A DNA stretch of 64,000 nt, from positions 128,001-192,000 of the forward strand of contig CAWVVV010000004.1 of the NCBI GenBank assembly GCA_963933835.1, written 5' to 3'. This stretch comes from an uncultured Puniceicoccaceae bacterium. Lineage in GTDB: Bacteria; Verrucomicrobiota; Verrucomicrobiia; Opitutales; Oceanipulchritudinaceae. Below the pieces are notes generated by a model. That model was not told the origin of the DNA. It did no database searches and worked only from the letters and a program-made list of their open reading frames with translations. The position numbers and the translations under genes were made by a program. Shown here one piece after another: positions 36,375-36,825 of the stretch (positions within the stretch are counted from its first letter, which is position 1; every line of letters begins with the position of its first letter).

Positions 36375-36449
36375 TGCTCAGTAGCTCAGCGGTAGAGCAG
36401 GAGACTGTTAATCTCTTGGTCGCTGGTTCGATCCCAGCCTGAGCAGCCA
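36375..36449 (+). tRNA. tRNA-Asn(GTT)
   Basis: TGCTCAG/CTGAGCA acceptor stem, GGAGA-CT-GTT-AA-TCTCT, GGTTCGATCC, CCA. Confidence 0.97.
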
Positions 36450-36455
36450 ATTTTT

Positions 36456-36480
36456 AAGCCCCTCTTCTGGGGCTTTTTTT
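36456..36480 (+). terminator. Terminator after tRNA-Asn
   Basis: AAGCCCC-TCTTCT-GGGGCTT followed by a T-run. Confidence 0.75.
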
Positions 36481-36734
36481 GCCTGTATTCGCTGTCTACA
36501 TCCTTGAGAACCCTCAGGATCGTTTCTACATCAGTCAAACACGGGATTTGCAGGCTAGACTGAATAGCCACAACGACAGCGGCCCAAGGAGGGGTAAATA
36601 TACCCGTAAGAATAGCCATGGAAGCTTGTCTGGTCTGAGGAGCATGCAAGTCGGTCCTCGGCTATGCGACGTAAGAGAGCAACAAAGGACTAAAAGTCTT
36701 CCAAGCGTATTTGCAGCGAATTGCTCGCTCAGTA
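36479..36734 (+). pseudogene. Small GIY-YIG nuclease, degraded
   Basis: FAVYILEN...FYISQT.DL..RL..HN...KYTRKN, then frameshift to PWKLVWSEEHASRSSAMRR..K, then premature TAA. Confidence 0.8.
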
Positions 36735-36825
36735 GCTCAGCGGTAGAGTCCCGCCCTGCGGGATTAATCTCTTGGTCTGCCGAAGGTCCCGATTCATCGG
36801 GAGTCGATCCCAGCCTGAGCAGCCA
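36727..36825 (+). pseudogene. Pseudo-tRNA-Asn copy with two palindromic replacements
   Basis: Blocks GCTCAGTAGCTCAGCGGTAGAG, TTAATCTCTTGGTC and TCGATCCCAGCCTGAGCAGCCA are identical to tRNA-Asn; they are separated by TCCCGCCCTGCGGGA and TGCCGAAGGTCCCGATTCATCGGGAG. Confidence 0.9.

Follow-up and report, generated by a model that had tools for sequence, protein, structure and literature searches.

The sole tRNA-Asn gene detected in the genome of an uncultured Puniceicoccaceae bacterium is followed by a broken gene for a small GIY-YIG protein and by a copy of the same tRNA in which part of the anticodon arm has given way to a hairpin. On balance, we regard this locus as probably a decayed member of a cassette family residing at the tRNA-Asn genes of Verrucomicrobiota and of some Planctomycetota and Acidobacteriota, and the cassette as likely a selfish hairpin-nickase element. 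It likely enters tRNA genes without an integrase. The family is widespread and apparently undescribed, as no description of a GIY-YIG/tRNA-hairpin cassette was found in the literature searched, from which subscription papers were largely missing. The copy studied here is dead, and its value is that of a pointer to the family.

Results

The window, that is the whole stretch of DNA analysed, comprises 64,000 nucleotides (GCA_963933835.1, contig CAWVVV010000004.1, positions 128,001 to 192,000), and the features below lie on its plus strand unless marked otherwise. The intact tRNA-Asn(GTT), which is the element's target, occupies 36375..36449 (ARAGORN; Rfam RF00005, 69.4 bits). Between it and the nuclease gene lies a terminator-like stem with a T run (36456..36481; stem 36456-36475), followed by a broken single-domain GIY-YIG gene (36479..36735) recognised by Pfam PF01541 and by homolog alignment. 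The whole tRNA copy (36727-36825) starts at tRNA position 2, position 1 being lost. Its first 22 nt (36727..36748; positions 2-24, acceptor 5' strand and D arm) match the tRNA 5' part exactly and overlap the end of the nuclease frame. Hairpin 1 (36749..36763), bearing the family signature GAG-hairpin-TTAA, then replaces CAGGAGACTG at tRNA positions 25-34. By repeat comparison, 14 identical nt follow (positions 35-48; 36764..36777), then a second insert of 26 nt (36778..36803) substituting the six T-stem bases GCTGGT, and finally 22 identical nt (positions 55-76; 36804..36825). The second insert consists of a 9-nt leader, hairpin 2 (36787-36802; a 6 bp stem with a 4-nt loop) and a G. A direct repeat beginning at TTAA (36408 and 36764) delimits a cassette repeat unit of 356 nt (36408..36763), in the order tRNA positions 35-76, spacer, nuclease gene, D-arm copy and hairpin 1. 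The preliminary description of this locus as tRNA, terminator, broken GIY-YIG gene and two-hairpin copy stands, with the start of the copy and the fold of hairpin 2 corrected here. Such a two-sided copy is unique to tRNA-Asn among the genome's 37 tRNAs, and Rfam leaves it unrecognised, its sole match at the locus being the intact tRNA.

It is scarcely conceivable that an assembly artefact or the remnant of an integrase island accounts for this arrangement; both were largely refuted by a spanning contig and by recurrence in homologs. The sequencing runs containing window DNA are marine, and the host is accordingly a marine member of the Verrucomicrobiota. Positions 35900-37300 are covered without a break, and with a single mismatch, by a 5,902-nt contig of run X2; the run belongs to a study other than that of the possible source run, but a contig so nearly identical could still be the source. 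The locus is real and no assembly artefact. Runs X3 and X4 cover it partially, in several pieces, and metagenome contig L279, which agrees over the stretch compared, is possibly the source and was hence excluded from support. The layout moreover recurs across phyla. Integrase islands do split tRNA genes, restore the target from element-borne sequence and leave a fragment displaced to the opposite end (Islander; available text of PMC4383910), and the locus resembles them in having a restored tRNA and a displaced fragment, seen as the direct repeat from position 35. In contrast to islands, the cassette carries no integrase, measures 0.3-0.4 kb, has ten bases replaced by a hairpin, and occurs in left and right layouts and in tandem arrays. 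No integrase gene lies within the unit, which is 356 nt long here and 318-437 nt in 44 homolog loci, is filled by the GIY-YIG gene and has no room for an integrase.

The nuclease gene in the window is a remnant. It scores 23.7 bits against Pfam PF01541 (cut-off 22.6), carries a frameshift at about 36616 and an in-frame TAA at 36691, and differs from the homolog alignment by YIS for YIG and by Lys for a conserved Glu. Its C-terminal frame stops at TAG 36733-36735, within the tRNA copy. Position 36518 in this dead gene is polymorphic, with A in runs X2, X3 and X9 and G in X4 and the window. The remnant is 55-60% identical to intact tRNA-Asn-linked homologs, which are proteins of 87-95 aa with one domain and no DNA-binding extension; for an intact homolog, a single GIY-YIG domain was predicted (pLDDT 82). 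The nearest structures by profile and fold were UPF0213 proteins (1zg2, 1ywl) and Slx1, and NCBIfam gave no match above cut-off. In a tree built on a short alignment, with long branches and rough bootstrap, the tRNA-linked clade received 99/98, and three proteins from NTS-pattern loci, serving as stand-ins for SsnA, formed a separate branch (100/97); the window remnant is 28% identical to these Ssn-like proteins. Judged from sequence comparison, the nuclease is a single-domain GIY-YIG protein outside the Ssn clade (cd10448). The tRNA-linked clade may correspond to CDD cd10449, a term absent from the papers searched. The L031 protein is identical to that of L023 (genome G015).

The family was assembled by aligning five intact proteins into a query, with which 80 loci, the best of 129, were drawn from genome contigs; kin in this set are not independent, and its selection favours intact, close genes. 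Among these best 80 of 129 loci, an intact same-strand tRNA-Asn lies within 150 nt upstream of the gene chain in 61, a TCCCG…CGGGA hairpin with TTAA lies downstream in 57, and the two occur together in 46; within -300/+200 nt, hairpin and TTAA were found in 71. One of the 19 loci without a called upstream tRNA-Asn sits at tRNA-Ile. In 17 of the other 18, inspection by eye revealed hairpin copies or fragments of tRNA-Asn (with truncated contigs, a 3' end alone or the mirror layout), while L100 has half a hairpin only. Most hosts are Verrucomicrobiota; Planctomycetota, Acidobacteriota and a single Armatimonadota account for the others, and in most carriers gene and hairpin are confined to one tRNA. 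A survey of the order gave matches at E <= 1e-12 in 45 of 251 genomes, other GIY-YIG kinds included, and its top 25 loci fall within the tRNA-linked clade. Among 29 tRNA-Asn loci of relatives, four have an intact GIY-YIG gene with a hairpin copy behind it (L010, L023, L024, L028), five have a 5' tRNA piece and hairpin upstream of the intact tRNA (L015, L017, L018, L021, L030), and 20 have neither gene nor hairpin copy (3 viewed as sequence; some loci end early). The distribution of the cassette is patchy. A same-genus empty allele was sought in G001, which offered only tRNA-Lys, and in G002, where tRNA-Asn stands at the contig start in a different arrangement. The earlier proposal of a minimal, integrase-free, tRNA-targeted unit, made of a GIY-YIG gene and a hairpin-substituted tRNA copy, is thus borne out: the unit recurs in homologs, the hairpin occupies the same arm position (40 junctions at positions 25-34, see below, beside the 57 downstream hairpins above), and empty sites exist in relatives, namely the 20 of 29 loci.

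As controls we used 28 lower-scoring GIY-YIG loci, comprising 20 of the 22 remaining order-survey matches, L136-L140 and three NTS-pattern loci. At eight of the 28, a tRNA on the same strand lies no more than 190 nt away (six tRNA-Met, one tRNA-Ile and one tRNA-Arg), and in the tRNA-Met group a hairpin identical in kind stands directly behind CATAA. Within 150 nt, a same-strand tRNA was found at 0 of 13 UPF0213-like and 0 of 4 Ssn-like loci, grouped by eye and tree. Because the control loci split in this way, association with a tRNA characterises certain clades, each tied to a tRNA of its own. Although UPF0213/YhbQ proteins and Slx1 supply the solved structures nearest to the cassette protein, the UPF0213-like loci from the cassette's order were without tRNA or hairpin context in 13 of 13 cases. 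An intact stand-alone UPF0213-like gene at window 41587-41829 (minus strand), likewise without tRNA context, served as a control. The tRNA-Met(CAT) sister family, with the hairpin right behind CATAA, was seen at L140, L290, L292, L303, L307 and L308, and upstream at L049; single cases occur at tRNA-Ile (L109, L297) and tRNA-Arg (L295). The window's genome holds three dead GIY-YIG genes, the two others being of tRNA-Met type. These two (G000, C4:12335-12566, minus strand, and C1:42770-43000) have no remaining hairpin copy; one lies directly behind tRNA-Met(CAT) and the other behind a mere tRNA-like 3' end, and the C1:42770-43000 copy groups with the tRNA-Met-targeting sister clade (L140).

Junctions of the first hairpin were tallied for the window and for L031-L140 after removal of five duplicates, provided that 5 or more exact bases flanked them on both sides; two further duplicate pairs, L087/L119 and L100/L125, contribute no first hairpin. 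Positions 25-34 of the tRNA are replaced at 40 junctions, 29-34 at six (Planctomycetota, where GAG recurs) and 39-46 at four (the same hairpin-TTAW motif, read on the opposite strand), with seven others. The right junction of the 25-34 and 29-34 classes is T35 in every case. Base pair 6 is kept in 45 of 46 distinct hairpins, by four pair types (shuffle mean 29.8, maximum 37), and pair 7 in 41 of 43. G-C at pair 6 occurs in five separate branches of the protein tree. Hairpin type did not cluster on that tree (9 changes versus 9.8 when shuffled), and the placement of the window protein beside proteins with same-type hairpins vanished once its tail was trimmed. Palindrome self-correction can yield paired stems without selection.

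The nuclease frame ends in tRNA-like sequence, and in 22 of the best 80 of 129 loci it stops at the anticodon-loop TAA behind the hairpin. Homology to the left of the hairpin varies from 2 to 23 nt; tRNA position 2 or 1 is reached in 3 of 55 copies, the window among them, and many copies lose the tRNA 3' end too. Tandem arrays hold up to 5 genes. A mirror layout, with the hairpin copy upstream and a leader plus intact tRNA downstream, was found at L072, L089 and L102, and nuclease-free relics lie upstream at 17 of 59 loci, often in tandem. Tandem nuclease-free units of 80-100 nt, composed of leader, tRNA 1-24, hairpin and 35 to about 45, adjoin the intact tRNA-Asn upstream at L036, L047, L050, L053, L077, L088, L017 and L018. 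At L040, L061, L078, L085, L097 and L101 there is only a tRNA-Asn 3' end before the nuclease gene, as if a larger island had later entered the upstream tRNA and displaced the cassette.

These copies bear on the possibility that the unit is a domesticated host module, in which the copy would serve as a decoy or guide RNA or the unit would defend or regulate tRNA-Asn. We consider this very improbable. The window copy does retain both acceptor strands and folds (z -2.1), and contigs from RNA run X9 cover 36423-36675; yet contigs cannot show expression, none of those listed lies over the copy, and the terminator precedes the gene. Host use is further opposed by the patchy distribution, the frequent decay, the three dead GIY-YIG genes in the window's genome and the loss of the 3' end in many copies, and SsnA is without RNA binding according to the available text of PMC11893778. 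As for the decoy or guide RNA put forward earlier as an alternative, it is unlikely because copies reaching the 5' end are rare and the 5' part doubles as the end of the nuclease frame; the near full-length copy in the window is atypical.

The two tRNA 3' halves were then compared within loci. Copies match their own tRNA exactly over positions 35-48 in 47 of 54 cases, and full 3' halves are identical in 23 of 34. In 4 of 34 loci the halves represent two distinct alleles, each of them valid. In L032 and L096 they differ by compensatory T-stem changes, in L044 and L062 the downstream half carries another species' acceptor strand, and around the different intact allele of L062 the upstream relic agrees with the downstream half. 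These four loci point to incoming donor DNA recombining into the resident gene, rather than to local duplication, and donor recombination is the reading that seems best to explain 3' halves of two origins. The mostly matching copies also fit local duplication or gene conversion. Repair that duplicates the tRNA, as previously suggested, is therefore too simple where two valid alleles are present, as at those 4 of 34 loci. The window halves are of the same allele, so the window locus alone gives no signal of donor recombination.

Discussion

The closest chemical precedent for the cassette is likely Ssn. SsnA binds a hairpin built on a TCCCG…CGGGA core in ssDNA and cleaves the strand a few nucleotides upstream of it, and Ssn with its NTS/SRM repeats shares with the cassette a single-domain GIY-YIG protein of about 90 aa beside a hairpin of that core (available text of PMC11893778). 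SLX1-like proteins are the sister clade of Ssn according to the peer-review file of that paper, in so far as it is available, and the Ssn authors describe bacterial SLX1-like single-domain GIY-YIG proteins as sparsely characterised and suggest an IS-like mobile origin (Chenal et al. 2025; available text of PMC11893778). The main text of PMC11893778, as available, never mentions tRNA. By this analogy, Ssn is likely the best model for the chemistry of the cassette nuclease, and the family likely works in the manner of an Ssn-type hairpin nickase element, yet its members differ from Ssn. Ssn has hairpin repeats on both sides, whereas the cassette has one 3' hairpin inside a tRNA copy, belongs to a separate clade and shows no genome-wide expansion; an SRM motif within 500 nt of the gene was found at 0 of the best 80 of 129 loci and at 0 in the window, compared with 2-3 in each positive control.

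We propose that the small GIY-YIG protein, by analogy with SsnA, would nick ssDNA beside the TCCCG…CGGGA-TTAA hairpin, and that the nick would start host recombination into the tRNA gene. Incoming DNA, either a circle or a linear donor piece, would pair with the host tRNA through the homology flanking the hairpin. A crossover to the right of the hairpin (35-76) would leave the intact tRNA upstream, as in the window, and one to the left would give the mirror layout, in which the hairpin copy comes first and the gene, the leader and the intact tRNA follow in that order. Repeated events would produce tandem arrays and nuclease-free relics, and whichever side crosses over, one intact tRNA would stay with the host. 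The hairpin would be a DNA recognition site and the end of the element, not an RNA. A single donor form would account for both layouts, the arrays and the relics. No circle or donor intermediate was seen among the loci examined, and the writing of the hairpin over ten bases falls outside the proposed mechanism.

The main rival to this nickase reading, which we hold to be unlikely, is a homing endonuclease that would cut the intact anticodon arm of the recipient's tRNA-Asn in the manner of SegB, the hairpin being a protective patch and double-strand-break repair copying the cassette. Homing would fit the strict target specificity by clade (Asn in one, tRNA-Met in the sister) and the allele patterns of L043/L044 and L062, which suit two-sided recombination with a donor, and the second hairpins of dead T arms may represent additional patches. 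SegB, itself a GIY-YIG enzyme, cuts in tRNA gene motifs, homes and causes segmental amplification, and the free-standing GIY-YIG homing endonucleases of T-even phages resemble the cassette in their tRNA-adjacent gene, their spread by recombination and the tandem amplification of tRNA and nuclease (available text of PMC2330249, PMC13096335). According to the same text, however, SegB is encoded by phage and cleaves dsDNA at a 27-bp site on the TψC motif, with no isotype preference and no hairpin-substituted copy, whereas the cassette family is chromosomal, isotype-specific and nearly absent from viral contigs, where a word-based search that detects close relatives only gave one weak match (34%). 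Moreover, an intact, cuttable tRNA-Asn persists beside the gene in the 61 of the best 80 of 129 loci, the protein of about 90 aa lacks the DNA-binding extension of most characterised GIY-YIG enzymes (available text of PMC11893778), and a patch needs no paired stem with a fixed TCCCG core.

The second hairpins raise another alternative, namely that the hairpin itself is a mobile unit of 16-26 nt, REP/MITE-like, copied by the nuclease into structured ssDNA, with tRNA duplications as host rescues, favoured once the essential tRNA had been hit, and the gene hitchhiking. REP/RAYT and IS200/IS605 use HUH tyrosine transposases. They are like the cassette in tying a small enzyme to ssDNA hairpins and in having non-autonomous hairpin copies (available text of PMC11893778); the cassette enzyme, in contrast, is GIY-YIG by Pfam, profile and fold, not HUH (Y1), and its hairpins are not dispersed in the window's genome. 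TCCCG…CGGGA palindromes number 14 there, against 10-28 in 8 simulations, so the palindrome expansion considered earlier did not materialise. We give the mobile-hairpin alternative little credence, and it is compatible with the nickase reading rather than exclusive of it. T-arm hairpins, unlike in sequence to hairpin 1 of the copy in question, were found by eye at several positions in 11 of the best 80 of 129 loci and in 7 further order-level loci. The layout of the window's second insert recurs in L120, L126, L127 and L131, and the identical 16-mer in L106; its 25-nt motif turns up away from tRNAs as well, in two metagenome contexts independent of each other (L280 = L282, and L281). These findings, together with the nuclease-free relics upstream of intact tRNAs, would suit a mobile hairpin. 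The first hairpin, on the other hand, joins the tRNA at a single, invariant right junction and is fused to the nuclease frame where that frame ends, and dispersed copies are absent from the window's genome. Across 301 phylum genomes, the exact second-hairpin pattern matched at two places besides the window, both coding DNA and not true hairpins, and the loose pattern remained at control level in 151 class genomes (7 versus 6 control matches). Hairpin 2 likely arose afterwards, as a separate hit on a copy that was already dead.

A bolder extension of the nickase reading is offered tentatively, as a possibility that we would not yet back. The family might form a new class of integrase-free, isotype-specific, tRNA-targeting elements, in which a GIY-YIG ssDNA nickase, sister to Ssn, uses a hairpin placed with base precision in the anticodon arm as origin, relies on host recombination on either side and also writes hairpins of 16-26 nt into other structured DNA, replacing about ten bases. 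If true, no smaller site-specific integrating element would be known, and the cassette would amount to a natural system for short-sequence replacement. The family assigns a concrete role in the genome, together with candidate substrates, to the bacterial SLX1-like single-domain GIY-YIG proteins, and may supply new sequence-specific ssDNA nucleases. It would also demonstrate recombinase-free integration into an essential gene. Since each intact homolog is accompanied by a hairpin and a target of its own, oligos allow a direct test of the cleavage rule. The cassette also accounts for hairpin-bearing tRNA fragments and for tandem repeats at tRNA-Asn that break assemblies.

Some further palindromes and tRNA duplicates were observed. 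In L281 a TCCCG…CGGGA hairpin is nested in another palindromic repeat, near the free-standing second-hairpin motif. L004 1580-2400 holds a 16-nt duplicate of the tRNA-Asn 3' end and a duplicated terminator, then arrays of other palindromic repeats, with no GIY-YIG match. In G000, a 23-nt duplicate of the tRNA-Ser(GCT) 3' end lies on another contig (C6:719-809 and C7:2197-2219), like the att site of an island.
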